From Bacilli bacterium (GTDB lineage Bacteria; Bacillota_I; Bacilli_A; RFN20; CAG-288): 64,000 nucleotides of DNA. The stretch lies in contig CAAGLY010000013.1 in assembly GCA_900770925.1 (NCBI GenBank), positions 182-64,181 of the forward strand, read 5' to 3'. Both the position numbers and the translations under genes were made by a program. Below the pieces are notes generated by a model, which searched no databases, was not told where the DNA came from, and saw only the letters and a list, made by a program, of their open reading frames with translations. Of this stretch, positions 1 to 64,000 are shown piece by piece (positions within the stretch are counted from its first letter, which is position 1; each line of letters begins with the position of its first letter).

Positions 1-231
1 GGTAGATAGAGTCAACAATTTTTTTCAAAATCTTTTAAAAATATTTTTCAAGAAGCAAAAAAGCCCGATTTTTCGGTCGTTTTTCGGAATTTATTTTTTT
101 GAAAATATTCTTCTATGGGTGGTTTTTTAGCTACTGAGTGATTGTTTTTCCTCTGCTTTTCCTCTCTTTTACAGAGATAGGAATTTCAGGGCCGTTTTTT
201 GCTATATATATATTGTTATTTATAAGCAATG

Positions 232-258
232 AAAAACCCCGGCTTTTATCGGCCGGGG
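232..258 (-). terminator. intrinsic terminator after rpiB
   Basis: Stem ccccggc (237-243) pairs with gccgggg (252-258). The A-run at 232-236 on + gives a U-tract on -. It lies 13 nt past the rpiB stop. Confidence 0.6.
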
Positions 259-270
259 TCTAAGAGACAT

Positions 271-1942: not shown

Positions 1943-4597
1943 TTATTCCTTATGGCTTTCGTCGTTCTTTGTATCTGTTTCCGGAGAAACTTCCTTGGCC
2001 TCTTCAGCCTTAGGAGTTTCTTCCTTCTTTGCCGGAGCAAATTCCTTCTCTAAATGGTGGACGGTTTCATCATCAGTCGTGATGAGAAGAACCGGAACAC
2101 CGGCATAGGATTCAAGGTGAGTAGCAAAGGATTCCCTAGACCTAGAGACATTCCTTACTTTTCCGTAGTCAAGGAACAGCCTTCCGATATGGCTCGGATC
2201 AGCTGCGCCATGGACACAGGCTTCCTTGAACTCATTGTCGCCGATCGGGTTTCCATGCGCAGTGGCAATGACTAAGACTAAGCGGGAAGGATGTCCTTCT
2301 AAGACTTTATCGATACCGAGATAGTAATAGTTGAATCCTGGATAAAGAATGATGTCTTTCGGATTCTTCGGCTCTGCCTTGTCCTGCCTCTTATGCTCAT
2401 CGACAGGCGGGAGCTTACGGTTCTTCAGAAGGTAGTCGATTTGATCGGAAGTGATGGTTTCGTTCTTGATTAAGGTTTCGGCAATCAGTTCAACATCGGC
2501 ACGATGCTCTTCTAAGAGCTTGCGGCACTGTTCATGGCAGTCATTGATAATCTTGCGGACAGCCGTATCGATCTCAAAGGCAACCTGAGTGGAATAATGG
2601 GCACTGGAAGAAGTATAGTCACGTCCTAAGAAGACGCTTCCTTCCGGTTTCTCATACTGGATAGGACCTAAGTCGCTCCTTCCGTATTCGGTAACCATGC
2701 TACGGGCAATGTTGGTGGCGACCTCAATATCATTGGAAGCACCGGAAGAGACATCGCCAAAGAAGATTTCCTCGCTGGTCCGTCCGCCTAGGTAACCGGT
2801 GATACGGGCAAGCCTCTGGTTCTTTGTCCTGAGGAACCGGTCTTTTTCCGGTGTCCTTAAGACATGGCCGCCAGTACGTCCGCGGGGAACAATGGTAATC
2901 TTCTGGACCTTATCCGAATAAGGCAAGAAGATACCGACGACGGCATGGCCGGCCTCATGATAGGCGACCTGACGTTTTTCGGCCGGATCAAGATGAGATC
3001 TCTTCGCCGGACCGGCAATAGCACGGTCGATGGCCTCATCGATATCGGAAGTGGTGACGGCAGTACGGTTATTACGGACAGCTAAGATAGCGGCATCATT
3101 CCTGATGTTCGCTAAGTCAGCGCCGGAAAAGCCGACTGTACGGGTAGCAATCGAATCGAAGTTGACATCCGGAGCAATCTTCTTATTGCGGGAATGGACA
3201 CGGAGAATAGCGGCACGTCCTGCCTGATCAGGAAGGTCGACCGTAATCGTACGGTCGAAACGTCCCGGACGGGTAAGAGCAGGATCAAGGACATCGGCAC
3301 GGTTAGTAGCTGCGATGACAATGATTCCGGAGTTGTCTTCGAAACCATCCATTTCAACAAGCAATTCGTTTAAAGTCTGCTCGCGTTCATCGTTTCCGCC
3401 ACCCAAACCGGCACCGCGCTGACGGCCGACAGCATCGATTTCGTCGATGAAGATCAGGCACGGAGCATTGGCTTTCGCATTCTTGAATAAGGAACGGACA
3501 CGGCTGGCACCAACACCGACATACCTTTCCACGAAGTCAGAACCGGAGATGGAATAGAAAGGAACATTGGCCTCGCCGGCAACTGCCTTTGCTAATAAGG
3601 TCTTACCGGTTCCAGGCGGGCCGACTAAAAGGACACCATGAGGGAGCTTGGCTCCTAAACGGGTGTATTTATCGGCATTTTTGAAGTAATCGACTAATTC
3701 GACAAGTTCAGCTTTGGACTCATCGCATCCGGCAACATCGGAGAAGCGGACTTTGGATTTTGATGTCTTACGGGCAAGATTGTCGACAAATCCGCCCATC
3801 GGGTTTCCGCCCTGGCCAAGGCCTTTGCTCCTGCGGGAGAAAAGGAAGAAGAAGAGGGCACCGATTAAGACTAAATAGATAACCGGCCTGACCCAGGAGA
3901 GATTGCTTGTCTTCTCTAAGGAGTAGGAATAGGAAACGCCGGAATTGTAGTAATCGACATAAGCGCCGTTGTCGTTCTGGATCTTCACATAGTTGACAAT
4001 CGGCCTAACGTAATGTTCGAACTCTTTGGTGGTAATCTGAACAGTGAAAGAATAGCTTCCTTTCTTCGCAATAGAGAAAGAACCTTTCAGATAATACAGA
4101 TCAGACCTTTCATTGCTCTTGACGACAGAAAGGACAAGATTCTGGTAGTTAGAAGGATTCAGGAGAATTTTCGCTAATGCTCCTTCATTCTTAGTCACTT
4201 CGCCAAGAGTCTTGATATCTTCCTCCTGAGCAAGCTGCTGATAATTGGAAAAATCCGGATAGCCATTCGAATCGGTATCGATCTTGCCGTCTTTATTAAC
4301 ATCGACAGCATAGTAGATATCCTTATTCGTATAGCCTAAAGATGTCGACCGCCTCTTAAATCCGAAGAAATAGATCCTCCTAGAAACGATAGCAATGAAG
4401 ACAAGGGCAAGAACCACAATTCCGCCAAAGCCTTTCTTCTGCTTTGGGCCATTATTGCTGCCCTGTCCAAACGGATTTCTGTTATCGGGAGAATTCTTCT
4501 TCGGCGGCTGCTGATCATCATCCGAAAATTCCCTAAGGGTCTGTTCCTTTCCCATAAAGGAATAGGTCAGGTTTTCGACTTTTTCGGGTTTTGCCAT
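1943..4597 (-). CDS. ftsH: ATP-dependent zinc metalloprotease FtsH with long ectodomain and extra C-terminal domain
   Basis: 884 aa with Walker [17 protein letters not shown] region [19 protein letters not shown] and Zn site HEAGHA. It has two TM segments. SD TAGGAGGT lies 6 nt before the ATG. Confidence 0.93.
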
Positions 4598-11619: not shown

Positions 11620-12822
11620 CTATTCATCTCTAAGCAGCCATCGAGAAGGATCAATAATCTGGATTCCGTCAATTTCATATTCTGGCTGATACGTACGGGC
11701 AATTAATATCTTAGAATAGTTGTCCTTGATTGCTTTTAAGGGCTCGAGTTCCCGTTTCAATGTTGTCTCATCGCTAATACTATAGGCAACCTGGAAATAA
11801 GTCCGCTTATTTTCTTTGATGGCAACAAAATCAATTTCCTTTCTATAGAGTTTGCCAACATAGACCTCATACCCTCTTCTTAGTAGTTCAATAGCAATGA
11901 CATTTTCAAGAACATGTCCATAGTCTAAAGTCTTAGTTCCTAAAAGAGAATACCGGAAAGAAATATCCGCTAAATAAAACTTATCATCTGTCTGAAGATA
12001 TTTCTTGCCTTTAACATCGAATCTTCTCATCCGATAAAAGGCAAAAGCATTGGTAAGATAATCAATATAGCTCTGAATTGTTTTTTTGTTTGCTTTAGTT
12101 CCGTTCTGCAAAAGTCTCGCTTCGATGTTTCGGACAGATAAAAGACTACCAATATTGCTTACAAGAAAATCAAGAAGCATTTCTAAAAGGGGAATGTTAC
12201 GGATGTGTTGTTTCTGAACGATATCCCGGATAATAAGAGCGTTCAGAACATCACGATTCAGATAGTCTCTCCGCCTCTCTTCTCTCTGATAAACGTAGCT
12301 TCCTGGCATACCCCCAATTCTAAGATAGTCATCGAAAGAATCATATACAGATTTCTGAACAGGAAAATACTCAAGGAATTCTCCAAAGGAAAAAGGAAAG
12401 ACAGGAATTTCAAAAGTACGTCCGACAAACAAAGTGGCAAGGTCAGAACTGGAAAGAAATGCGTTAGAGCCAGTGATATAAATATCGTATTTTTCTTCAG
12501 CATGAAGTGAGTTAATTGCTTTTTCAAACCCTTGACATAGCTGAATCTCATCAATCATTAAATAATTCTTTGTGTCTGGCTTATATTTTTTGGATACATA
12601 TTCCAACAGACGATGATATTCATTGATTTCTTCAAATTGGGCCAAATTGAAATTGATTTTGATGATATTGGAACGCGGTTCCGTCTTTCTTATTTCATCG
12701 GAAAATAAATCCAGCAGCTTTGATTTCCCACATCGCCGAATTCCTGTAATTACTTTGATATCGGGTGTTCCCCTACATTCCTTAAGAATCCCCAGATATC
12801 GGTTTCTTCGAATCAGTTTCAT
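11620..12822 (-). CDS. AAA-family ATPase with DUF4143 domain
   Basis: Walker A ITGIRRCGKS, Walker B LMIDEIQ, and a DUF4143-like C-terminal half. The start is set at MKLIRRNRYL (12822). The gene is markedly AT-rich. Confidence 0.75.
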   Translation of the reverse strand: MKLIRRNRYLGILKECRGTPDIKVITGIRRCGKSKLLDLFSDEIRKTEPRSNIIKINFNLAQFEEINEYHRLLEYVSKKYKPDTKNYLMIDEIQLCQGFEKAINSLHAEEKYDIYITGSNAFLSSSDLATLFVGRTFEIPVFPFSFGEFLEYFPVQKSVYDSFDDYLRIGGMPGSYVYQREERRRDYLNRDVLNALIIRDIVQKQHIRNIPLLEMLLDFLVSNIGSLLSVRNIEARLLQNGTKANKKTIQSYIDYLTNAFAFYRMRRFDVKGKKYLQTDDKFYLADISFRYSLLGTKTLDYGHVLENVIAIELLRRGYEVYVGKLYRKEIDFVAIKENKRTYFQVAYSISDETTLKRELEPLKAIKDNYSKILIARTYQPEYEIDGIQIIDPSRWLLRDE

Positions 12823-12998
12823 TATTATTATAGTTATAATATAGCATTCTATTAGCCAAATTTGAATTATTTTCATTTTTGGCTAACAGAAGCGAAGAGA
12901 GGAGCATAAGTTTGTTCAATGCATAATAATTTAGTATTAATACGTAGAGAGCTAGTCCTTATCATTAAAGATGCACAGAATAGCTGTTAAGCTTTAGA

Positions 12999-13636: not shown

Positions 13637-13728
13637 TGGCGGAGCAGAAGAGATTCGAACTCTTGCTCGGTTATAAGCCGACTGACGGTTTTCAAGACCG
13701 TTCCCTTGAACCGCTTGGGTACTGCTCC
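13637..13728 (-). tRNA. tRNA-Ser (anticodon UGA)
   Basis: A 92-nt class II tRNA with acceptor GGAGCAG/CTGCTCC, anticodon arm ACGGT-CTTGAAA-ACCGT, a long variable arm (TCGG..CCGA), T-loop TTCGAAT, G73 and encoded CCA. Confidence 0.92.
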
Positions 13729-13790
13729 ACAGACAGACAGAACAAAGAACGAAAAAAAGCCACCGTCTGGGATGGCCTTCTTTGCTTTAA

Positions 13791-13866
13791 TGGTGGGCGC
13801 TATAGGGTTTGAACCTATGACCTTCCGCACGTCAAGCGGATGCTCTCCCAGCTGAGCTAAACGCCC
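13791..13866 (-). tRNA. tRNA-Val (anticodon GAC)
   Basis: A 76-nt cloverleaf with acceptor GGGCGTT/AGCGCCC, anticodon arm TCCGC-TTGACGT-GCGGA, T-loop TTCAAAC, A73 and encoded CCA. Confidence 0.9.
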
Positions 13867-14392: not shown

Positions 14393-15208
14393 ATGGACTT
14401 CAGCCGAGTAACAGACAAAAACTTTGCCCGTAATATTTCCACCGAGTTCATTGCAAGCAGGGCAACAAGGCTACTGATTATCGTTTTTTCTTTCGTGGTT
14501 TATTTCAAGCAGAAAAAGTATTCCTATAAGGACAAACCCAAAGGAATTGTCAACCTTGCCGAAATCATCGTCGAATTCGGTGACAAGCAGGTCAACGAAC
14601 TCATGGGCAAGCCAAAATACTTTTCTAATTTCGGCGGATATGTCATTCCCTTAGCCGCCTATATCTTCCTTGGCTTTTTCATCGGCAGGATGGGAATTCC
14701 AAACTTCATCGTCCTTGGTCCAGCCAGCGAAGGATACCTAAGGAATGAGCAGAATCTCTTCACCCAGATCAGCCCGCCATTCACAAACCTCGCTTTCACT
14801 AGGACAATCGGTTTACTTACTGTTGTCCTTATCGAACTGACGAAGAGGCGCTGCGATAAATGGAACTACTATAAGCAGTTCATCTTCACCTTCCCTCCGC
14901 TTCTTCCTTTAGCCACGAACTTAGTCCCGATGCTTTCCTTAGGAAGGCGTCTATTTGGAAACGCCTTTGCCGGTTTCTGCATAGAAACCCTTCTCTACTA
15001 TGCCCTGAATTCTATTGGGCATTCCTTCGGTTTGGTTCTAGCACCTGTCATCAGGCCTGCCATACATGCTTACTTCGATGCCTGGGGTGGTATTATCCAG
15101 ACAAGGGTATTTGTCAGGATCACCAGGAGGAACATCGCTCAGCAGGCTCCGGAAAGCGAAGCCGTCGAGCAACAAGCCAAAGCAAGGACGCTTAAGGCCC
15201 ACAGGTAG
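14393..15208 (+). CDS. atpB: F0F1 ATP synthase subunit a
   Basis: 271 aa and polytopic, with the LSLG.RLFGNAFAG motif carrying the essential Arg of subunit a. The operon context supports the call. Confidence 0.88.
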   Translation: MDFSRVTDKNFARNISTEFIASRATRLLIIVFSFVVYFKQKKYSYKDKPKGIVNLAEIIVEFGDKQVNELMGKPKYFSNFGGYVIPLAAYIFLGFFIGRMGIPNFIVLGPASEGYLRNEQNLFTQISPPFTNLAFTRTIGLLTVVLIELTKRRCDKWNYYKQFIFTFPPLLPLATNLVPMLSLGRRLFGNAFAGFCIETLLYYALNSIGHSFGLVLAPVIRPAIHAYFDAWGGIIQTRVFVRITRRNIAQQAPESEAVEQQAKARTLKAHR

Positions 15209-15240: not shown

Positions 15241-15549
15241 ATGAATTTCTTATCGAATCTGGTTTTTTTAGCCGAGCAGACTACTACAGAAGCCGCAAAA
15301 TTCGCTAGCTTAGGACAGAGGTACATCGCCATCGGTATCATCAGGATTGCCATGGGCTTCTCCTCCTTAGCAGAAGGTGCTGTTGTTGTCACCGCCATCA
15401 AGGGAAGGTCCCGCAATCCGGAAGCCACCGGCAAGCTCCGTTCTTCTATGATCTTAGGATCCTCCATCTGCGAAACGGTTGCTATCTACGGCCTTGTTCT
15501 CGCTATTCTTAGGATTTTCGTTGCCAACCCGGTTGCTTTAGCCAAGTAG
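15241..15549 (+). CDS. atpE: F0F1 ATP synthase subunit c
   Basis: 102 aa forming a helical hairpin, with polar loop G-(AGG)-SRNPE and the essential carboxylate in ICETVAIYGLV. Confidence 0.9.
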   Translation: MNFLSNLVFLAEQTTTEAAKFASLGQRYIAIGIIRIAMGFSSLAEGAVVVTAIKGRSRNPEATGKLRSSMILGSSICETVAIYGLVLAILRIFVANPVALAK

Positions 15550-15568
15550 AGCAGAAAAGGAACGGGAA

Positions 15569-16171
15569 ATGAAGAAGAAGCTCATTCCGGCTTCCTTATT
15601 ATCTCTTTCCCTGCTAAGGCTGACATCCTGTGAAACAGACAGCAGGTCCGGAAGCATCTCTGACAAGGTCAGCAGCGCTCTTCCGAACCTGTGGATATCC
15701 TTAGCTCAGCTAGCTGCCTTCCTCGTAAGGGTAGCTATCTTCTTTGTGTTTGCCTATAAGCCAATCAAAAAGAAGAGGAAACAGCGCGCCGACTATATTG
15801 CCGGCAACATCAAGGATTCCGAACAGGCAAAAGAAGCCGTAAGCAACAGCGAACAGATCTGCCACGATACCATTAACCACGGCAAAGCCGAGGCAAGCCG
15901 TATTGTCTCTGCTGCCAATAAGACAGCAAAGGATTCAGCAGACGAAATTCTCAAACGGGCAAACGACCAGGCTGATGCTATCCGTGAGCAGGCTAAGAAG
16001 GATGCTGAGCAGATCAAAAAGGATTCCCTTAAACAGACCCATGATGAAATCGTCAATGGTGCCATCTCTGCTTCTAAGGCAATCCTGAAACGCGAACTGA
16101 ATAAGGAAGATAACGATAAGGCAGTCGACGAGTTCCTCAATAAGAGGAAGAAGGAAGAAAAGAATGGATAA
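15569..16171 (+). CDS. atpF: F0F1 ATP synthase subunit b with lipoprotein-type signal
   Basis: 200 aa with an N-terminal signal ending in the lipobox LTSC, one TM helix, then a long charged coiled coil typical of subunit b. Confidence 0.8.
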   Translation: MKKKLIPASLLSLSLLRLTSCETDSRSGSISDKVSSALPNLWISLAQLAAFLVRVAIFFVFAYKPIKKKRKQRADYIAGNIKDSEQAKEAVSNSEQICHDTINHGKAEASRIVSAANKTAKDSADEILKRANDQADAIREQAKKDAEQIKKDSLKQTHDEIVNGAISASKAILKRELNKEDNDKAVDEFLNKRKKEEKNG

Positions 16172-16706
16172 AGCCCTTCTTGAGCATTATGCCTATGCCC
16201 TGTTTTCCCTTTCGAAGGAAGAAAACAAGGAAGAGGAATACCGCACGGAAAGGAACTGGCTGGACCAGGTTTTCAAGGAAAACCCGGACCTGCTCTCTTT
16301 TCTCTCGTCTCCTAGGGTATCCCCTAGAGACAAGGAGAAGATCAGGGATGATGTCTTTAGCAATGATCTTTCCAAAGCCGTGAACGGATTTATCCGGGTC
16401 AGGAGGAAGCGGAAAGCCCTGAAGGAATTCCATTCGATTGTCAAAGCCTACAACCACCTTTACAACGAAGATACCGGCGTACTTGAAGGCCGGGTATACT
16501 CCGCATTTGAACTTAGCGATTTACAGAGGAAACAGCTCGAAGAGGGATTCTCTAAGCAATACCAGAAGAGAGTCACTCTGAGCCAGTTCCTTGAACCTTC
16601 CCTAATCGGAGGAAGGAAAGTCTATATCGGCGATACGTTATACGATAATTCCGTTGACTCACGATTAGAAGCCGTACGGAAAGTCCTATTAGAGAAGCAA
16701 GCATAG
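16164..16706 (+). CDS. atpH: F0F1 ATP synthase subunit delta (OSCP)
   Basis: 180 aa with OSCP-like pattern (YA.ALF..., GG..V.IGD.L.D.S). It overlaps atpF by 8 nt and sits at the expected operon position. Confidence 0.85.
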
Positions 16707-16720
16707 GAAGGAGAAGAACA

Positions 16721-18223
16721 ATGACCGATAGGGATCAGATCAGCAATCTCATCAAGAAAGAGATTCAGAACTACGAAAGTAAAATCGAAACCGACGATGT
16801 CGGTAGCGTCATCTCCGTCGGAGATGGTATCGCAACAATCTACGGCCTTGATAAAGCAAGGTACGGAGAGCTCCTTTCCTTCCCGCATGATGTTTACGGA
16901 ATGGTCAGGAACCTGAACGAAGACAGTATCGGCTGCATTCTTTTAGGAAAAGATATCCTCATCGATGAAGGTGACAGCGTCAAACGGACAGGAAAAGTCG
17001 TCTCTGTTCCTGTCGGCGATGCTCTCTTAGGCCGTACCGTCAACGCCTTAGGAAGGCCGATTGACGGCTTAGGAGACATTAAGGCAGATGTCTATAATCC
17101 GATTGAAGCCCCGGCTCCTGGAATCAGGAAGCGGAAAAGCGTCAATGAGCCTCTCCAGACCGGTATCAAAGCCATCGATTCGATGATTCCGATTGGCAAA
17201 GGTCAGCGTGAATTGATTATCGGTGACCGTCAGACCGGTAAGACTGCTCTTGCTATCGATACCATCATCAACCAGAAAGGCAAGGATGTTATCTGCGTCT
17301 ACTGTGCAATCGGACAGAAGAACTCCACCATTGCCCAGATTGAGAGCAAACTGAAATCCTTCGATGCAAGGAAATACACGGTTATTGTCAATGCTTCAGC
17401 GAGCGAATCAGCTCCAAGGCTTTATGTCGCTCCTTATTCCGCTACCACCAGGGCTGAATACTGGAGGAATCAGGGCAAAGATGTTCTGATTGTCTACGAT
17501 GATCTCTCTAAGCATGCTGTCAGCTACCGTGCCTTATCCTTACTGCTTAAGCGTTCTCCGGGACGCGAAGCTTATCCAGGCGATATCTTCTATCTCCATT
17601 CCCGTCTGTTAGAGCGTTCCTGCAAATTAGATGAGAAATACGGAGGCGGTTCTCTTACTGCCCTTCCGATTGTCGAAACCCAGGCCGGAGATATTTCCGC
17701 CTACATCCCGACTAACGTCATTTCTATCACGGATGGCCAGATCTTCCTGACTACTGACCTGTTTAACCAGGGTCAGCGTCCGGCTGTCGATTCTGGTCTT
17801 TCTGTCTCCCGTGTCGGTTCTTCTGCCCAGTGGAAGGCAAGGAAGTCTGTTGCCTCCTCACTGAAGATTGAGCTTGCCAACTACAACGAAAGGCTAGACT
17901 TCTCCCGTTTCGGTTCGGATCTCGATAGTGTCACCCAGAATGTCTTAAAGCATGGTTCGGTCTTAAGGGAAGTCTTAAAGCAGAAGCAGTATTCGCCTCT
18001 CTCTAGGGCAGATGAGATTATCGATATCTATGTTGCCCAGTCTAAGGCGTTAGATGTTCTTCCGTTAGAGAAGATTCCTTCTGTCTTATCTCAGATCCGT
18101 CTGTCTGTCCATTCTCAGCATCCCGAAGCCATCAAGGACAGGGAAGAGACGAAGAAGCTTTCCGATGAGACAAAGAAAGTCATCAGTGAAGTCGCAAGCG
18201 ACATCCTTAGCGGAAGTCGTTAA
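16721..18223 (+). CDS. atpA: F0F1 ATP synthase subunit alpha
   Basis: 500 aa with Walker A GDRQTGKT, then [50 protein letters not shown]. Confidence 0.97.
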
Positions 18224-18242
18224 TTAATCATAAAGGAAAGTC

Positions 18243-19118
18243 ATGGCAGAATCCTTAATCAATACCAAACGGCGAATCAACACCATCTCCTCTACCGAAA
18301 AGATCACCAAAGCAAGGAAGCTTGTCGCCTCGGTAAAATACCAGCGCTGGAAGAAAAGGTACGTTTCTAACCTTGAATATGCCAAAGAGAGGGAAGAGAC
18401 AAGGTACTCAGCTTTAGCCTGCCTGACTGAAAAGGACAAGAAGCCGAAAACTAGGCTGCCCCACAATGAATCCAAGAAGAGACTCTTTATTGTCAGGACA
18501 TCGACCCTTGGATTGTGCGGCGCCTATAACTACAGTATCTTCAAAAGGCTTGATCCTGTTCTGACCGAAGAGGACGAACTTCTTCTTATCGGAACGAAGG
18601 GTATCAGCCATTATCAGAACAGATCCTATGAGAAGATTGAGGATTACCAGGACTTAAGGAACCGTTTCTCCTTCGGACAGGTCAAGCATCTCCGCCACCA
18701 GACTATCCGCCTGTACAAGACAGGAAAGTATAAGGAAATCCATCTCGTCTATACCCACTATAAGAACTCCCTGAACTTCATTCCGAAGGATGAGATTCTT
18801 CTCCCCTTCTCTCCGAACAGGGAAGAAGCCGATAACCGGAAGAAAGACTATCCGCCGATTCTTGAACCAAACAAAGAGGAGGTCCTTAATAGGACCATCG
18901 CCCACTATCTTGATTCCTTAAGGTATCAGAAACTCGTGGAAAGCGAAATCTCGGAGCTCTGCTCACGCCGCAATGCCAGGGAAACCGCAACCGACTCGGC
19001 AGAACAGATCAGAGGCGAACTCAGGATTCAGTACAACAAGAGCCGTCAGAATGCAATTACACAGGAAATCACCGAGGTGGTTGCCGGTGCAAACGCAGGA
19101 AAGAAAAAAGAAGATTAG
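18243..19118 (+). CDS. atpG: F0F1 ATP synthase subunit gamma
   Basis: 291 aa. The N-terminus (IKRRINTISSTEKITKA) and C-terminus (NKSRQNAITQEITEVVAGA) are the conserved gamma helices. Confidence 0.9.
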   Translation: MAESLINTKRRINTISSTEKITKARKLVASVKYQRWKKRYVSNLEYAKEREETRYSALACLTEKDKKPKTRLPHNESKKRLFIVRTSTLGLCGAYNYSIFKRLDPVLTEEDELLLIGTKGISHYQNRSYEKIEDYQDLRNRFSFGQVKHLRHQTIRLYKTGKYKEIHLVYTHYKNSLNFIPKDEILLPFSPNREEADNRKKDYPPILEPNKEEVLNRTIAHYLDSLRYQKLVESEISELCSRRNARETATDSAEQIRGELRIQYNKSRQNAITQEITEVVAGANAGKKKED

Positions 19119-20558
<1,440 letters not shown>

Positions 20559-20567
20559 TCCAGAGCC

Positions 20568-20978
20568 ATGGATACGTTTACTCTTGTCCTATTAGAGCCA
20601 TCCCAGGAGAAGACGATTGATAAGGTGGAAGAGCTCCTTGTCAAAACCAGCGATGGAGAGAGGGGAATCCTCAGCCATCATATCGATCTTCTTGCGAATC
20701 TGGTCATCTCCGAAAGGAATGTCAAGTACAATAACGCCTGGCATCGTTATGCTATCGGCGGAGGCTCGCTCCGTTTCTCGCAGAAAGAGAACAAAGGCGT
20801 TCTCTGCTTATCTTCCTTCGAGGAAGACAAGGATATTGATTTAGTCCGGGCCGAGAAAGCAAAGAAAGAAGCCGAAGACAGGCTGAAGCAGCAGATCAGT
20901 CTTGTGGAAGAGAAGAAATTCCAGATCCGGCTTGCCCGTGCTGTGAACCGAATCAAGGTCAAAAATTCGGAAAAATAG
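20568..20978 (+). CDS. atpC: F0F1 ATP synthase subunit epsilon
   Basis: 136 aa with a beta-sandwich N-terminus (GILSHH..L) and a helical C-terminus (RAEKAKKEAEDRL). It is the last gene of the operon. Confidence 0.85.
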   Translation: MDTFTLVLLEPSQEKTIDKVEELLVKTSDGERGILSHHIDLLANLVISERNVKYNNAWHRYAIGGGSLRFSQKENKGVLCLSSFEEDKDIDLVRAEKAKKEAEDRLKQQISLVEEKKFQIRLARAVNRIKVKNSEK

Positions 20979-23576: not shown

Positions 23577-24461
23577 ATGAAGCTTCCTTTAGGAAAATAT
23601 AACTCTTACAATACCTTCCTCCATCGCAGGGATGCCCGAATCAAGCTCGTTGGCATGGTCATCAGGATGGTTGCTGTATTCTTATCCTACGGAAACCAAT
23701 ATAGGGGACTTGTCGTCAGGCTAGGCTTATTTATTATCCTTATGGCGCTATCCATCTTCGGAAAAGCGAGCTTTTCCCGTCTTTTCTCTTCCCTTAAAGT
23801 CCTCTGGATGATGATTCTGATTCTCATCGTCATCAACATCTTCCTTCCGAAATATTCAAGGGAACAGATTCAGGAAAAAGGATTAGCGATTGCCTTCAGG
23901 ATCAAATCCATACCTGTTACCTATGCCACCATCATCAACATTGTCTATGTCATTGTCCGTCTTGTCTTAGTGCTTAGGCTGACCAATATCTTTACGGCAA
24001 CCACTAAGCCTAGGGACAGGACTAACGCCAGGGAGTGGCTCTTAGCTCCCCTAAAACTCCTTTTTATCCCAGTCCATAAGATAGCAAGGTCCATTTCCCT
24101 TGCTCTCCGTTTCATTCCGACTCTGACAGAGGAAACGGATCGGATCAGGAAAGCCCAGGCAAGCCGCGGTGTTGACTTCCAGCAGGGAAAATTCAAGGAA
24201 AAGAGGAAGTCCCTCATTTCCTTAATCATCCCTCTTTTCAGGTCTGCTTTCTCTATCTCGGGAGAACTTGCCGATGCCAGGGAATCAAGAGGATATGATC
24301 CCAATGCCAAACGGACAAGATACCGCGCCTTCAACTGGTCTCTCCGCGATACTTTAGGGGTTATCTTCCTAGCTGCAAGGCTGGCTTCTAGGATCTATCT
24401 TGCCATCAGGAAGTTCGATAGGTTTGCCTACTTAGGCGTCAATCTTCCTAAGATTAGCTAA
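23577..24461 (+). CDS. ecfT: ECF transporter transmembrane component EcfT
   Basis: 294 aa and polytopic, with coupling-helix region ALRFIPTL.EE.DRI.KAQASRG typical of EcfT/CbiQ. Confidence 0.88.
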   Translation: MKLPLGKYNSYNTFLHRRDARIKLVGMVIRMVAVFLSYGNQYRGLVVRLGLFIILMALSIFGKASFSRLFSSLKVLWMMILILIVINIFLPKYSREQIQEKGLAIAFRIKSIPVTYATIINIVYVIVRLVLVLRLTNIFTATTKPRDRTNAREWLLAPLKLLFIPVHKIARSISLALRFIPTLTEETDRIRKAQASRGVDFQQGKFKEKRKSLISLIIPLFRSAFSISGELADARESRGYDPNAKRTRYRAFNWSLRDTLGVIFLAARLASRIYLAIRKFDRFAYLGVNLPKIS

Positions 24462-28373: not shown

Positions 28374-29120
28374 TCACCACTGAGAATAATCAGATTTATC
28401 TTCAATAAACCAGGTTCGACTAAACTTCATTTTGGTTCCGTTATCTTCAAATATGAAATGACCATGAGAAAAGCCGTTTGTCTGGAAAATCTCATCTGGA
28501 GCACTAATTAGATTCTTCTCTGCCGCCCCTGGAAAATAGGCCTGAATATAGAACCGGCAGTCTACTCCATCTCCGACCTTCGCATAAATTTGAGAGAAAT
28601 CAAAATAGAACGAATCATAGGCGTTATAAAGAGCACAATAAGAATCAAGTTCGCTTGAATAAAAGTAAACAATATCATAATCGTTGGCTTGATAAGGAGG
28701 AAGATTGGATTGAAGCGGGAAATTATCTGCCCTTTGTTTATTACCAGAGTTATCGAGATAGGAAACCACCATACGGACAGAAGGAGTTATCCCTCGAATT
28801 GTTTCACGTGTTCTTAAAGATTCGTTGATTCTAACACCATATGTCAGTTTAATTGGTTTAGACGGATTTGCTTTCCTGGATTCTGTCTTCCATATCGTCA
28901 AACCGATTTCATGCAAAGGTTCAAGGGGTAATTCATGATGCTCTTCCGGTTCGTTCCGCTTCATAGCAAAAAAATTTTCTTTAGTAAACCATTCTGTACT
29001 ATATAATTTTCCGTTCTTATCAGTCTTAAAGTGCGAATCAGTAATAGCAGAAGACTGACTATTTCCACATCCTGAAAGAAGCAAAAAAGGAAGAACGGAT
29101 AGGATTTTAATTTTATTCAT
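28374..29120 (-). CDS. lipoprotein, unknown function
   Basis: 248 aa with a signal peptide and lipobox LLLSGCG. It is the third gene of a three-gene secreted-protein operon. Confidence 0.65.
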   Translation of the reverse strand: MNKIKILSVLPFLLLSGCGNSQSSAITDSHFKTDKNGKLYSTEWFTKENFFAMKRNEPEEHHELPLEPLHEIGLTIWKTESRKANPSKPIKLTYGVRINESLRTRETIRGITPSVRMVVSYLDNSGNKQRADNFPLQSNLPPYQANDYDIVYFYSSELDSYCALYNAYDSFYFDFSQIYAKVGDGVDCRFYIQAYFPGAAEKNLISAPDEIFQTNGFSHGHFIFEDNGTKMKFSRTWFIEDKSDYSQW

Positions 29121-29138
29121 GCCTATTCTCCTTTTTAG

Positions 29139-29819
29139 TTATTGATAGGAAGCATAGTAATTTGCTCCCGAATTGTTCATAAGGATTCTTAATTCGATAG
29201 TGTTATACGCAAAAGCAGAATCCCTAGGATTTGACGAATCCGAGCTTAATGATCCATCACGGAAACGAAGGCTGTATACAACATCCAGGTCCGAATTTTT
29301 CACGTTTTCCATAATTTCAGACAAGTTAAGATGAACTGTAACGCATCGCTTGAACACAACATAATAGGTGTTTCTACTTGGAAATCTAAGAATCTGGCCA
29401 ACACATTCTTTTGTGGTAATATTAGGTAATTCTTCATCCTCGATAAAAGTGCTCATCAAATTAGAATATGAACCTTCTTCATGGCCGAGAATTGGAAAAT
29501 CAGAAGAGTGTTTTGTAATATATTCATCTGAAAGATTCATTCCAACCCATATCTTAGCCGAGAATTTGCTTGTGTCGTTAACGCTTTGGACCGGTTCTTC
29601 TTTCCTCGCCAACCACACTCTTTCCTTATCTTCAGTATAGGTATCATAAGAGAAAGGAAAAACATTCTCCTGGCCGATTAACCCATCCGAATACCCAACT
29701 CCATATTCGTCATGATAAGCAAAGCCATCCGAAGATTCAGCCGTTGGTTGATTCTCCTTTTGGCATCCCGTAAGAAGGGAAAGCATTGCGAGAAATATTG
29801 ATGCTCTTTTAAAATTCAT
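29139..29819 (-). CDS. lipoprotein, unknown function
   Basis: 226 aa with a signal peptide and lipobox LLTGCQ. SD AAAGGAGGC lies upstream. Confidence 0.65.
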   Translation of the reverse strand: MNFKRASIFLAMLSLLTGCQKENQPTAESSDGFAYHDEYGVGYSDGLIGQENVFPFSYDTYTEDKERVWLARKEEPVQSVNDTSKFSAKIWVGMNLSDEYITKHSSDFPILGHEEGSYSNLMSTFIEDEELPNITTKECVGQILRFPSRNTYYVVFKRCVTVHLNLSEIMENVKNSDLDVVYSLRFRDGSLSSDSSNPRDSAFAYNTIELRILMNNSGANYYASYQ

Positions 29820-40260: not shown

Positions 40261-42378
40261 ATGAACGAGAAGAAATTCGACGTAGTTTCCAATTACGGCA
40301 TCGATGTCTTCAACGATAAGGCAAGGAAGGATTACCTCTCTCCGAACATCTACCGGGAACTCAAGGCAACCATTGAAAAGGGTTCAGCCCTGAATCCGGA
40401 ATTAGCAGACGACGTTGCAGAAGGAAGGAAGAACTGGGCACTGAGCAAAGGAGCTACCCACTATACCCACTGGTTCGAGCCTCTTAACGGGCTGACTGCC
40501 GGTAAGCATGACTCTTTTATTTCCGTTCCGGACAAGAATGGGAAAGTAAGGATGGAATTTTCCGGAAAAGAACTGATCAAAGGTGAACCGGATGCCTCCT
40601 CTTTCCCTTCTGGCGGACTTCGTGCCACCTTCGAGGCAAGAGGATACACAGCCTGGGACTGCACTTCTCCTGCTTTTGTCATCCATGACGAATACGGAGC
40701 CGTCTTATATATCCCGACTGCTTTCTGCTCCTACACAGGAGAAGCCCTCGATGAGAAGACGCCTCTTCTCCGTTCCATGGACTATCTAAGTGATCAGTCT
40801 ATCCGGGCTCTCCGCTTATTAGGAGACAATAAGACCTCTAGAGTCTTCACTAGCGAAGGACCAGAGCAGGAATATTTCATCCTCGATGCCGATGCCTATG
40901 AAAAAAGAAAAGACCTTGTCTATACCGGACGTACTCTCTTTGGAGCCGTATCGCCGAAAGGACAGGAAAGGGAAGACCATTATTTCGGTCCTATCCGGGA
41001 GAAAATCATCTCCTTCAGGCAGGAAGTCAACGAGAACCTCTGGGTATTAGGAATCCCTGCTAAGACCGAACATAACGAAGTCGCTCCGAGCCAGCATGAG
41101 CTGGCGACGATCTTCAGTCAGACGAATATCGCTGCCGATCAGAACGAAAGGGTGATGCTGATCCTGAAGAAAATTGCGAAGAAACACGGATTTATCTGCC
41201 TTCTCGGCGAGAAACCGTTCAACGGAGTCAATGGCTCAGGAAAGCATAACAACTGGTCTATTAATACGGATACCGGAGTCAATCTCTTCTCTCCTGGAGA
41301 CAAACCGAAAGACAATAAACAGTTCCTTGTATTCCTTACAGCCGTTATTAAAGGAGTCGATGAATTCGGCGGGCTTCTCCGGTGCTCTGTCGCCACCTAC
41401 GGAAACGATTTCCGTTTAGGGGCCAATGAGGCGCCTCCGGCTATCCTTTCCATCTTCCTCGGAGATGAGCTCGAGGAAATCGTCGAGAATATCATTTCCG
41501 AAAAAAAGGACAAGAAAGGAAAAGAGTCCAGCAAGTTACTTACCGGCGCTAAATCCCTCCCTGTCTTAGCGAAGGATACGACAGACCGTAACCGTACTTC
41601 GCCTTTTGCATACACAGGCAACCGCTTTGAATTCCGTATGGTCGGCTCTGAGCAGAATATCGCCACCCCGAATACAGTACTGAACACCATTACCGGCTAT
41701 GAACTGAAAGACTTTGCTGATACAGTCGAGAAAGCAAAGGATAAGGATCAGGCCATCAATGACTGGATCCGAACAAACTTAGCCAAACATTCAAGAGTCC
41801 TCTTCAATGGAGACGGCTACTCGGATGCCTGGGTCAAAGAAGCAGCGAAGAGAGGGCTCCCGAACCTTAAGACGACAGTCGAAGCAATCGATGTCTTAGC
41901 TGAGCAGAAAGTCAGAGATTTGTTCACTCAGTCTAAAGTATTAAGCAAAACCGAACTCCTTAGCCGTGCAAACATCAAGTATGATAGGTATGCAAACCAA
42001 GCCATCATTGATGCAAAGACCATGTCCCACATGGCTCATAAGCAGTATCTCCCAAGTATCAATAAAGCACTTGCTAAGATGGCAAAGGAAGTGAAAGACT
42101 TAATGGAAACTAAGCTTCCTATCCCAGAAACAACTATCGCTTCAATCAATAAGATTTCTATTCTGCTTGATCAGGCAGGAAAGGCAACGGATAAGCTTGA
42201 CTCCCTGATTGAGAAAGCAAAGAAGTTCCACGGAAGAGACTTAGCGGTCTATAGCCGTGATAAACTTCTTCCGGCAAGGCATAGCCTACGTGAGCCAATC
42301 GATGCCCTTGAGCTCTTAATCAGCAAAGAAGATTGGCCGGTTCCCTCCTACGGAGACCTGCTCTTCCACATTATTTAA
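40261..42378 (+). CDS. glnN: glutamine synthetase, type III
   Basis: 705 aa. The length and the N-terminus (FGIDVFND...ATHYTHWFEPL.G..A.KHDSF) are characteristic of GSIII. NEVAPSQHE and GSGKHNNWS are the catalytic motifs. Confidence 0.88.
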   Translation: MNEKKFDVVSNYGIDVFNDKARKDYLSPNIYRELKATIEKGSALNPELADDVAEGRKNWALSKGATHYTHWFEPLNGLTAGKHDSFISVPDKNGKVRMEFSGKELIKGEPDASSFPSGGLRATFEARGYTAWDCTSPAFVIHDEYGAVLYIPTAFCSYTGEALDEKTPLLRSMDYLSDQSIRALRLLGDNKTSRVFTSEGPEQEYFILDADAYEKRKDLVYTGRTLFGAVSPKGQEREDHYFGPIREKIISFRQEVNENLWVLGIPAKTEHNEVAPSQHELATIFSQTNIAADQNERVMLILKKIAKKHGFICLLGEKPFNGVNGSGKHNNWSINTDTGVNLFSPGDKPKDNKQFLVFLTAVIKGVDEFGGLLRCSVATYGNDFRLGANEAPPAILSIFLGDELEEIVENIISEKKDKKGKESSKLLTGAKSLPVLAKDTTDRNRTSPFAYTGNRFEFRMVGSEQNIATPNTVLNTITGYELKDFADTVEKAKDKDQAINDWIRTNLAKHSRVLFNGDGYSDAWVKEAAKRGLPNLKTTVEAIDVLAEQKVRDLFTQSKVLSKTELLSRANIKYDRYANQAIIDAKTMSHMAHKQYLPSINKALAKMAKEVKDLMETKLPIPETTIASINKISILLDQAGKATDKLDSLIEKAKKFHGRDLAVYSRDKLLPARHSLREPIDALELLISKEDWPVPSYGDLLFHII

Positions 42379-43254: not shown

Positions 43255-44010
43255 ATGAAAAAAGAAAACCGTTTTCTCCTGCTTTCCTTTGTCTCCTCTC
43301 TTTTTCTCTGCCTCGGTTTTTCTTTCCTTCCCATTCAGAACTGGGTCAGTTCATTGTGGAAGTCCAATCTGATTGAATCTTCCTTTTATTTTATTCTCCT
43401 AGCCTTAATCTTCTTTGACTGTAGAAAATACCTGCGCAAAGAGAAAAAAGACCATCCCTCTTTTTTCTATTCCGTTCCTTTTCTTCTGGTCTGTTCCTCA
43501 AACCTTCTTTATGTCCTCTGTTTCAGACAGAAAGTAACCGATTCATTTAACCCAAGTGTCTTCTTCACTAGTCTTCTAGTAAGGATAATTAAAGTCAGGA
43601 TAGAGGAGCTGCTTTTCCGTGTCCTTCTTCTGCAGTTTTTAGATTCTGTCAGGAAGGACACGAAACAGAAAAGAATCCTCCTGATTTTCATTATCTCCCT
43701 CTGCTTTGGATTAAGGCACCTTGTCAATCTATACGGAAAAAGTCCTCTTCCTGTTCTAGAACAGGTCGGATACACCTTCTTCCTCTCTCTCTTCCTGACT
43801 AGCTATACCCTTTTCTATTCTTCTATCCTTATCTCAATCCTTTACCACTTCCTCTTTAACTTCCTCAACCAGCTCATCATCACTACCTTCTTTACACTTA
43901 ATACCGATACTTATTATCTTCTCTTCTCTATCGGGGCAGGACTTATCGTTCTTCTCTTCTATCTCATCTGTTCTATAATCAGAGGCAAAGGAAAGAAAAA
44001 GAATGCTTAA
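43255..44010 (+). CDS. CPBP-family intramembrane glutamic endopeptidase
   Basis: 251 aa and polytopic, with EELLFRVLLL, FGLRHL and HFLFNF motifs. Confidence 0.8.
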   Translation: MKKENRFLLLSFVSSLFLCLGFSFLPIQNWVSSLWKSNLIESSFYFILLALIFFDCRKYLRKEKKDHPSFFYSVPFLLVCSSNLLYVLCFRQKVTDSFNPSVFFTSLLVRIIKVRIEELLFRVLLLQFLDSVRKDTKQKRILLIFIISLCFGLRHLVNLYGKSPLPVLEQVGYTFFLSLFLTSYTLFYSSILISILYHFLFNFLNQLIITTFFTLNTDTYYLLFSIGAGLIVLLFYLICSIIRGKGKKKNA

Positions 44011-44770
44011 CCTCCCTTTTGACTTATATCCTATCCTGATTGCCCTTTCTATTCTCATCGATAGGATCCTTATTGAAGTCTATTTCCGGAAAAACAGACT
44101 CGGAAAGAATAACGCCATTGCTTTCGAACTGAACCTAGTAATCGCTGCCTTTAGGGGAGTAATCGGCGGAATACTAAGGCAGAATCTATATGACTTCATT
44201 GAAAACCCAAAAAATTATCGGTTCACCTGGGCAAGGACCTTCTTCGGAGGTCTGCTATTCGGAGCAGGAAGTTTTCTGATCGGATATTTTCTCATTATCC
44301 GGAAGAAGTATCCTCAGTCCTTATCTCCGATTCTTACTTTAGCAGGAGCCTGTATTCCCTTAAGCCACGGAATAGGAAGAATCGGATGTGTCCTAGATGG
44401 ATGCTGCTACGGAAAAGAGATTCCTTCCTCCTCTCCTTTTTACCTGATGGGAATCAAGTTCAATACCACCAGTACAAAAGTCTATCCGACAAATCTCTTT
44501 GAATCCGTTTTTCTTCTGCTATTAGCTTCTATCCTGCTTTACCTGGCATTCAAGAAACATAGCCAGTACACACTTCCTATCTATAGGATCAGCTATGGAA
44601 TCTTCCGTTTTCTGATTGAGTTCCTCCGCGGAGATCACCGCGGAAGCTTTATCCCCGGAATCAGTCCGAGTCAGTTCTGGGCAATCCTCCTTCTTATCGG
44701 AGGCATTGTTTACCTTTCTATCCTTCTCTTCCGGGCAAAGAAAAAGAATAGCCAGAAGCCATCTAAATAA
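44003..44770 (+). CDS. lgt: prolipoprotein diacylglyceryl transferase
   Basis: 255 aa with GRIGCVLDGCCYGKE, PTNLFES and EFLRGDHRG motifs. It overlaps the CPBP gene by 8 nt. Confidence 0.9.
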   Translation: MLNLPFDLYPILIALSILIDRILIEVYFRKNRLGKNNAIAFELNLVIAAFRGVIGGILRQNLYDFIENPKNYRFTWARTFFGGLLFGAGSFLIGYFLIIRKKYPQSLSPILTLAGACIPLSHGIGRIGCVLDGCCYGKEIPSSSPFYLMGIKFNTTSTKVYPTNLFESVFLLLLASILLYLAFKKHSQYTLPIYRISYGIFRFLIEFLRGDHRGSFIPGISPSQFWAILLLIGGIVYLSILLFRAKKKNSQKPSK

Positions 44771-63444: not shown

Positions 63445-64000
63445 TTATTCTCCTTTATGAATTACTTTTTGATAAGACTCATATTTTTGTTTCCAATCTT
63501 CAACATCTTCCGGATAGAAGATCTGGCTATCAATAGACCTTCCAATCGCTTCTCTAGCTTCTACCCTGTTTTTGTAGACGCCATGATGAAGAAATTGACA
63601 TACACTATTTCCAAGAACAGTCGACTCACTGGAACCAGTCACTACTCTTCTTGCTAAAGAATTCGCCGTATACTGATTTAGAACGGAGGCTTGATTCCCG
63701 CCTCCGACAATCAATAGGGAATCTAGTTCCTGGCCTGTCAGAGCCAGAAGCTTATCGAAGATTGTCTTATAGGCAAGTGCCATAGAAACATAAATCCTCT
63801 TCCTCCTTTCACCAGGAGAGGCGGGCTTCTTCTGACCCGTCTTTTCAAGATAAGAATCAATTTTTCTTAGCCTGTCACCTGGTGTTTCAAAAAGCGGATC
63901 ATCCACATCAAGATAGGAATCCATATCCCCTGCCTTAAGAACTAGATCCTTGATTTCACTAACGGAAATCGGAATACCTTTTTTCTCGTAATCCTTTCTT
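63445..64000 (-). CDS. rhaB: rhamnulokinase (FGGY family), C-terminal part; the gene continues beyond the window
   Basis: The frame is open to the window edge. IVGGGNQASVLNQYTANSL...V.TGSSESTVLGN is the FGGY C-terminal domain. The gene sits next to rhaA and rhaD. Confidence 0.8.
   Translation of the reverse strand, partial: RKDYEKKGIPISVSEIKDLVLKAGDMDSYLDVDDPLFETPGDRLRKIDSYLEKTGQKKPASPGERRKRIYVSMALAYKTIFDKLLALTGQELDSLLIVGGGNQASVLNQYTANSLARRVVTGSSESTVLGNSVCQFLHHGVYKNRVEAREAIGRSIDSQIFYPEDVEDWKQKYESYQKVIHKGE

Follow-up and report, generated by a model that had tools for sequence, protein, structure and literature searches.

AGG read as methionine in a gut Bacilli contig that carries a complete ATP synthase operon

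The ATP synthase operon and its AGG codons

We analysed a stretch of 64,000 nucleotides, hereafter the window, from the assembly of a Bacilli bacterium (NCBI GenBank GCA_900770925.1, contig CAAGLY010000013.1, positions 182 to 64,181 of the forward strand), the sequence of which is also present on the ENA gut-metagenome contig ERZ27229687:k119_164300 (90 kb). An F-type ATP synthase operon lies complete on the + strand of the window, from atpB to atpC (Table 1). The original prediction for this DNA, made at atpE and atpF, held that AGG is read as Met, because a standard translation places charged Arg residues inside the helices of subunit c and the signal peptide of AtpF. As described below, AGG as methionine is strongly supported throughout the window by conservation, hydrophobicity and profile scores.

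The AGG codons singled out by the original prediction, four in atpE and one in atpF, were all found in frame at their positions. AtpE is recognizable as an F-type subunit c by its hairpin, by the loop G-M-S-R-N-P-E with its Arg encoded by CGC, and by the helix-2 residue Glu78 in ICETVAIY; the second of its hydrophobic segments appears only with AGG as Met. The polar loop is encoded by G-AGG(15406)-TCC(15409)-CGC(15412)-N-P-E and the conserved loop Arg is indeed CGC, in a column that holds Arg or Lys in all homologs. The loop AGG had been placed directly before this Arg; it lies two residues before it (G-M-S-R-N-P), while the hydrophobic or Met character expected of its column was confirmed, and six relatives have the loop GM[A/S]RNPE. 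Between 15225 and 15666, the ORFs (open reading frames) of the opposite strand are short shadows contained within atpE and atpF.

In atpF, further AGG codons are located at 15644, 15728, 15776 and 16145, and in FLV-AGG-V and LNK-AGG-KKE the AGG is opposite Met in 3/3 nearest relatives. In atpB, AGG and CGT stand side by side: the CGT that encodes the stator Arg falls in a column that is Arg in 43/43 homologs, and the AGG before it in a column of L26/F8/M4/V3/I2. Moreover, the genes from atpH to atpC (16164-20978) contain 47 AGG codons, many of them at classic Met positions, e.g. GR-AGG-PSAVGYQ and LT-AGG-AEYFRD in AtpD.

Table 1. Genes and sites of the ATP synthase operon, and lgt (window positions; letters with numbers give residue counts in homologs)
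Feature	Position	Strand	Details
atpB, subunit a, 271 aa	14393-15208	+	14 AGG, 3 internal ATG, 4 CGN; PF00119
atpB AGG-CGT, LSLG-[AGG]-[CGT]-LFGN	14945-14950	+	CGT = essential stator Arg
atpE, subunit c, 102 aa	15241-15549	+	4 AGG, 2 internal ATG, 2 CGN; PF00137
atpE AGG aa27, GQ-AGG-YIAIG	15319-15321	+	just before helix 1; poorly conserved column, A4 G4 L2 N2 V2 I2 of 21
atpE AGG aa35, IGII-AGG-IAMGF	15343-15345	+	transmembrane helix 1; A13 I5 C5 V3 M3 L2 of 33
atpE AGG aa56, loop G-[AGG]-S-R-N-P-E	15406-15408	+	M13 I13 V9 of 35
atpE CGC, conserved loop Arg	15412-15414	+	R23 K12 of 35
atpE AGG aa91, LAIL-AGG-IFV	15511-15513	+	transmembrane helix 2; L25 I5 M3 C1 of 34
atpF, subunit b, 200 aa	15569-16171	+	5 AGG, no internal ATG; PF00430
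AtpF lipoprotein signal, MKKKLIPASLLSLSLL[AGG]LTSC	15569-15631	+	AGG aa17 at 15617-15619; Cys21 at 15629-15631
atpF AGG aa54, membrane helix FLV-AGG-VAIFF	15728-15730	+	FLVMV in relatives L001-L003; L34 M4 T4 of 44
atpH	16164-16706	+	
atpA	16721-18223	+	
atpG	18243-19118	+	
atpD	19131-20558	+	
atpC	20568-20978	+	
lgt, prolipoprotein diacylglyceryl transferase	44003-44770	+	PF01790

Conservation, hydrophobicity and profile scores at AGG

The 59 non-overlapping long ORFs of the window, with 18,523 codons, served as gene proxies. Within these ORFs we counted 441 internal AGG codons (238 per 10,000 codons) and 110 internal ATG codons (59 per 10,000). Among the Arg codons CGT is used most, at 118 per 10,000; AGA is at 84 and CGG at 71. 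The GC content of the window is 0.438. The ORFs end in TAA (34), TAG (20) or TGA (5). The table 4 code, in which TGA encodes Trp, was considered and rejected: the conserved genes are all intact under translation table 11, and TGA terminates five of the 59 ORFs.

For comparison, we aligned the window proteins by tblastn to the best 80 related loci from reference genomes, obtained with AtpD as the query. Across these loci, the columns in which the window has AGG contain mostly Met, then Leu, then Ile, and essentially none of the loci uses AGG itself there. In a Codetta-style likelihood calculation, in which columns with at least ten homologs were counted, AGG was represented by 74 columns and its log-likelihood was +81.0 for Met, +0.9 for Leu and -111.1 for Arg. 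The same calculation recovered the standard meaning for 56/60 control codons, the failing ones being AGA, ATA, CAA and TGG with 3-9 columns each and margins of a few log units; CGG behaved as Arg.

Columns conserved at 80% or more gave the same picture. Conserved Met columns are filled by AGG in ten cases and by ATG in three, while the 38 conserved Arg columns are occupied by CGN in 36 cases, by AAT in two and by AGG in none. Since AGG accounts for 74 of the 159 'Arg-box' columns, its complete absence from conserved Arg columns is expected by chance with a probability of ~1e-10 (arithmetic on the column counts). AGG is present at 1/68 conserved Leu columns and 1/49 conserved Ile columns. Overall, the residue make-up of AGG columns (M 0.27, L 0.22, I 0.13) is close to that of ATG columns (M 0.35, L 0.17, I 0.09). 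In FtsH (1943-4597, - strand), six AGG codons are opposite L, V, H, V, L and M of the T. maritima structure 2CE7.

The biophysical side of the prediction was examined by proxies, i.e. Kyte-Doolittle hydrophobic segments and a lipobox regular expression. With a hydrophobic core defined as a 19-mer with a Kyte-Doolittle value of at least 1.6, and AGG itself ignored in the scoring, 10.4% of AGG codons fall in cores, as do 15.5% of ATG and 14.8% of Leu codons, compared with 2.7% of CGN, 1.9% of AGA and 1.5% of Lys codons. AGG thus differs from CGN and AGA taken together (Fisher odds ratio 4.5, p = 3.7e-8) and does not differ from ATG (p = 0.18); AGA shuns the cores as CGN does. By the mean hydropathy of the flanks of +/-7 residues, AGG was not separable from Arg or Lys codons, and the hydropathy evidence is confined to the hydrophobic-core and upper-tail measures.

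When AGG was translated as Met, the number of predicted hydrophobic segments in the window ORFs rose from 55 to 64. Subunit c went from one segment to two, which is the expected hairpin, subunit a from two to three, and EcfT (23577-24461) from four to eight. Lipoprotein signals of the PROSITE PS00013 type have an n-region with K/R, an h-region without charged residues, and [LVI][ASTVI][GAS]-Cys at position 15-35. R17 disqualifies AtpF under this rule, whereas M17 lets it pass, with Cys21 as the lipobox Cys; four further predicted lipoproteins satisfy the rule under either code.

Pfam scores of five ATP synthase subunits rose by ~93 bits in total when AGG was read as Met instead of by the standard code. 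ATP-synt_A (PF00119) rose from 80.1 to 93.2 bits and ATP-synt_C (PF00137) from 40.6 to 46.4. The domains of the alpha subunit rose from 265.1/116.8/48.3 to 272.1/131.7/56.1, those of the beta subunit from 237.3/62.2 to 251.1/72.8, and the gamma subunit from 230.1 to 250.0. Because hydrophobic segments, lipobox and Pfam scores all gained with Met, the improvement that the original prediction anticipated from replacing R by M at AGG was observed.

In total, we conclude that the original reading of AGG as Met is correct on the combined evidence of the likelihoods, the columns at individual sites, the hydrophobic segments, the AtpF lipobox and the Pfam gains. Therefore, the apparent arginines in the helices of the c-ring and of subunit a, and in the signal peptide of AtpF, are methionines. 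AGG is the main internal Met codon, ~4 times as frequent as ATG; ATG is still the usual start codon, and Arg is encoded by CGN and AGA.

A proposed decoding tRNA and the alternatives

Reassignment of AGG from Arg to Met has been reported in eight MAGs (metagenome-assembled genomes) recovered from the faeces of baboons and humans (Shulgina and Eddy, eLife 2021, PMC8629427), and was re-identified in bioRxiv 10.64898/2026.04.02.715157 and in NAR 2026 (PMC13092985). The clade concerned comprises three species of the GTDB genus UBA7642, or Enterosoma, in family CAG-288 and order RFN20 of the uncultivated Bacilli (PMC8629427). The reassigned genomes have 209-235 AGG and 58-69 AUG per 10,000 codons, prefer CGU for Arg and have a GC content of 0.42-0.46, whereas outgroups have 6-54 AGG, 231-262 AUG and 134-293 AGA (PMC8629427). 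The window, with 238 AGG, 59 ATG, 118 CGT, 84 AGA and a GC content of 0.438, fits the clade and not the outgroups, the published rates being those of Pfam-aligned codons and ours those of whole ORFs. It shares with the clade the codon and its new meaning, the dominance of AGG among Met codons, the low ATG, CGT as the top Arg codon, the GC content and the habitat, the primate or human gut; AGA is kept in the window yet reduced relative to the outgroups.

The published tRNA(CCU) derives from tRNA-Arg, lacks the Arg identity element A20 and has A73, G2:C71 and C3:G70; its gene directly precedes that of tRNA-Arg(CCG), and methionyl-tRNA synthetase (MetRS) is presumed to charge it (PMC8629427). The tRNA genes of the window are only those for Ala(GGC), Ser(UGA), Val(GAC) and Thr(GGU). 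No extra tRNA was found on the contigs that reach past the left edge, which stop 180-1,600 bp beyond the window start, and a look-up with the ORF at 63445-63924 for contigs extending the window returned no record.

Metagenome contigs were therefore scanned with a pattern that required a CCU anticodon loop with a T-loop and an end of the form G70-C71-N-A73-CCA, and downstream of these an anticodon loop with CCG. The scan gave 13 hits, of which eight carry an identical 77-nt tRNA(CCU), GGCCGGGTAGCTCAGCATGGTAGAGCAACCGTCTCCTAAGCGGTTTGTCACGAGTTCGATTCTCGTCTCGGCCACCA. The eight contigs have a GC content of 0.40-0.46 and 216-243 AGG per 10,000 codons, and in each a tRNA-Arg(CCG), which has A20, begins 13 nt after the tRNA(CCU). 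Several features were not forced by the pattern: the D-loop AGCATGGTA, with U20 instead of A20, the 5-bp anticodon stem, the identity of the eight copies and the AGG-rich surroundings. The CUCCUAA loop differs by a single base from CUCAUAA, the loop of elongator tRNA-Met, but it had been written into the pattern and is not independent evidence. With AGG as Met, two domains on one of the eight contigs (L111) gained, AcnX from 274.4 to 295.4 bits and Oxidored_FMN from 181 to 194.9. The recovered Met-like tRNA(CCU) followed by tRNA-Arg(CCG) fits the published description, and the described tRNA exists on contigs with the same AGG-rich coding as the window.

Two other contigs (L105 and L108; GC 0.52-0.53) come from unrelated organisms with a normal ATG usage of ~233 per 10,000 and carry a tRNA(CCU) with U1, G70-C71 and A73. 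These tRNAs were rejected as evidence of reassignment, as they match the pattern by the acceptor end only.

Altogether, these observations make it very probable that the window comes from a UBA7642/Enterosoma bacterium (Bacilli, RFN20, CAG-288) that uses the published AGG-to-Met code with its proposed tRNA(CCU)/MetRS mechanism. In this mechanism, a tRNA(CCU) derived from tRNA-Arg would have lost its Arg identity with A20 and gained the Met-like acceptor features A73, G2:C71 and C3:G70; MetRS would then charge it with Met, and Met would be inserted at AGG. The genome sampled here presumably carries this tRNA, charges it by MetRS and decodes AGG unambiguously. 

Several points weigh against this assignment. 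The genes for tRNA(CCU), MetRS and tRNA-Arg(UCU) are absent from the window and from ~10 kb beyond its right end, and G70, C71 and A73 of the recovered tRNA were forced by the scan pattern and are not independent evidence. On L111, Pyr_redox_2 drops from 126.2 to 119.3 bits with AGG as Met. The alignment supports AGA as Arg weakly, over 7 columns. The three published reassigned species are not among the 80 loci, and clade membership was judged from the codon signature and nearest-neighbour identity, not from a tree. Finally, protein-level or experimental evidence for AGG as Met was not found in the literature searched.

Ambiguous decoding, in which AGG would be mostly Met with a meaningful Arg fraction contributed by wobble of tRNA-Arg(UCU), so that proteins would be Met/Arg mixtures, is a possibility raised for the clade itself (PMC8629427). 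AGA is still used in the window, so tRNA(UCU) must exist, and a few AGG codons stand at polar, unconserved positions, such as aa265 of atpB with the column R3 V2 T2 K1. However, AGG is found at none of the conserved Arg columns and is frequent in transmembrane cores and at invariant Met sites, where a sizeable Arg share would be harmful; moreover, the AGA usage below that of the outgroups fits a lower demand for tRNA(UCU). This placement of AGG implies that any Arg fraction is small, and we consider ambiguous decoding improbable. That AGG instead encodes another hydrophobic residue, Leu or Ile, is very improbable: although Leu or Ile abounds in many of the homolog columns that have AGG in the window, ATG columns have the same M/L/I profile, the likelihood separates Met from Leu by ~80 log units, AGG fills 10/13 conserved Met columns against a single Leu and a single Ile column, and the recovered tRNA(CCU) has Met-type features and no Leu-type long variable arm.

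Under the standard code, the lineage would have to tolerate Arg in membrane helices and at Met positions. We find this scarcely credible, even though table 11 leaves every ORF intact and Pfam domains are still detected, because the likelihood is strongly negative for Arg, AGG is never at conserved Arg columns, 46 extra 'Arg' would lie in hydrophobic cores, invariant Met residues of AtpA, AtpB and AtpD would be replaced by R, the AtpF lipobox would be broken, and the ATG usage would leave about one quarter of the normal Met (outgroups 231-262 per 10,000). Sequencing or assembly error, or editing of AGG to AUG in the mRNA, deserves practically no credence: identical proteins occur on many independent assemblies, the 441 sites are every one the same codon, and a dedicated tRNA(CCU) is found on contigs with the same AGG-rich coding. 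Also, G-to-U editing of mRNA is not known to occur in bacteria.

Other features of the window and relation to known genetic codes

The predicted lipoprotein nature of subunit b (LTSC, Cys21) is conserved across the Bacilli family, the lipobox LTSC being kept in seven relatives (L001-L005, L008 and L013). Since lgt is present in the window, so is the lipoprotein pathway. AtpF of Mycoplasma is annotated as a lipoprotein, and the AtpF described here resembles that annotation.

The best solved match to AtpE is the c-ring 3ZK1 (E = 1.2e-10), the two-carboxylate Na+ ring of Fusobacterium nucleatum. AtpE has a helix-1 carboxylate, Glu44 (15370-15372, LAEG), and a helix-2 stretch Glu78-Tyr83 (15472-15489, E-T-x-x-x-Y), presumably the two-carboxylate Na+-binding motif. 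The likeness to 3ZK1 comprises the helix-1 Glu (GIGEG in 3ZK1), the helix-2 E-[S/T]...Y motif and an M at the position of the AGG at aa35; by contrast, 3ZK1 is a distant homolog only, and Thr67 of its motif is Val in AtpE. This motif suggests that the ATP synthase of the window may be Na+-coupled.

Three loci depart from the usual codon balance. The AAA_14/DUF4143 ATPase gene (11620-12876, - strand), near the tRNA-Ser/tRNA-Val genes at 13637-13866, has a GC content of 0.358 (gene mean 0.445, sd 0.034) and a usage like that of the standard code, with 2 AGG, 5 ATG and 12 AGA; neither of its AGG codons falls within a Pfam envelope, so that its scores are identical under either code. Several metagenome contigs end between this gene and atpB. 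The gene may represent an island, either variable or newly acquired, whose donor used the standard code. Two adjacent predicted lipoproteins (28374-29120 and 29139-29819, both on the - strand) have no Pfam match, a GC content of 0.37-0.38 and, unlike most other ORFs examined, at least as many ATG as AGG. Finally, type III glnA (40261-42378, + strand) has 8 AGG and 8 internal ATG, compared with ~4:1 elsewhere; its product gained ~10 bits in total in Pfam scores with AGG as Met. At the left end of the window (1-270; contigs L091-L094), every contig with the leftmost genes breaks off within the short distance given above, which suggests that a repeat such as an rRNA operon breaks assemblies there.

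Identical window proteins are indexed in 29-67 blocks of a metagenome-assembly collection; identical AtpD is found in 29 of its blocks, and 24 contigs with AtpD were read. Among the matches listed, the nearest reference is a Candidatus (Ca.) Enterosoma sp. MAG, with 86% identity in AtpD; it has the standard code at the AGG columns of the window, as do all 80 loci. With 71 CGG per 10,000 and a GC content of 0.438, the window is intermediate between the three published Enterosoma species and was matched to none of them; nothing else of substance differs. This intermediate position and the presence of its genes in so many blocks are the basis for a reading that we consider possible but doubtful, namely that the window represents a human-gut AGG-to-Met lineage outside the three published species, possibly with low-GC genes (11620-12876; 28374-29819) acquired from a standard-code donor. 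If these genes were acquired in this way, they would have crossed a genetic-code boundary by natural horizontal transfer, and their remaining AGG codons would now be mistranslated as Met.

For annotation, the consequences of the AGG-to-Met code are direct. With table 11, 441 residues of the 59 ORFs, or 2.4% of codons, come out as Arg instead of Met, which breaks the predictions of transmembrane helices and signal peptides, so that subunit c loses a helix and AtpF its lipobox; homology scores drop as well. Pipelines that handle such MAGs need a genetic-code check. Moreover, the highly expressed ATP synthase subunits give AGG-containing peptides as targets in gut metaproteomes.

From raw sequence, the original prediction arrived independently and correctly at a rare sense-codon reassignment that had already been published. 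This reassignment is one of very few in bacteria, and the finding adds no new phenomenon. The mitochondria of some green algae also read AGG as Met (Noutahi et al. 2019, as cited in PMC8629427), where the codon and the new amino acid are the same; however, that case is organellar, of independent origin and with a different tRNA history. Reassignments of CGG to Trp or Gln, and of CGA/CGG to Trp, are described in RFN20 Bacilli/Onthovivens, Anaerococcus, Peptacetobacter and Absconditabacteria (PMC8629427). These likewise concern Arg sense codons of bacteria, in one case within RFN20, but they affect rare codons in low-GC genomes, whereas AGG in the window has rebounded to high usage at a GC content of ~0.44.

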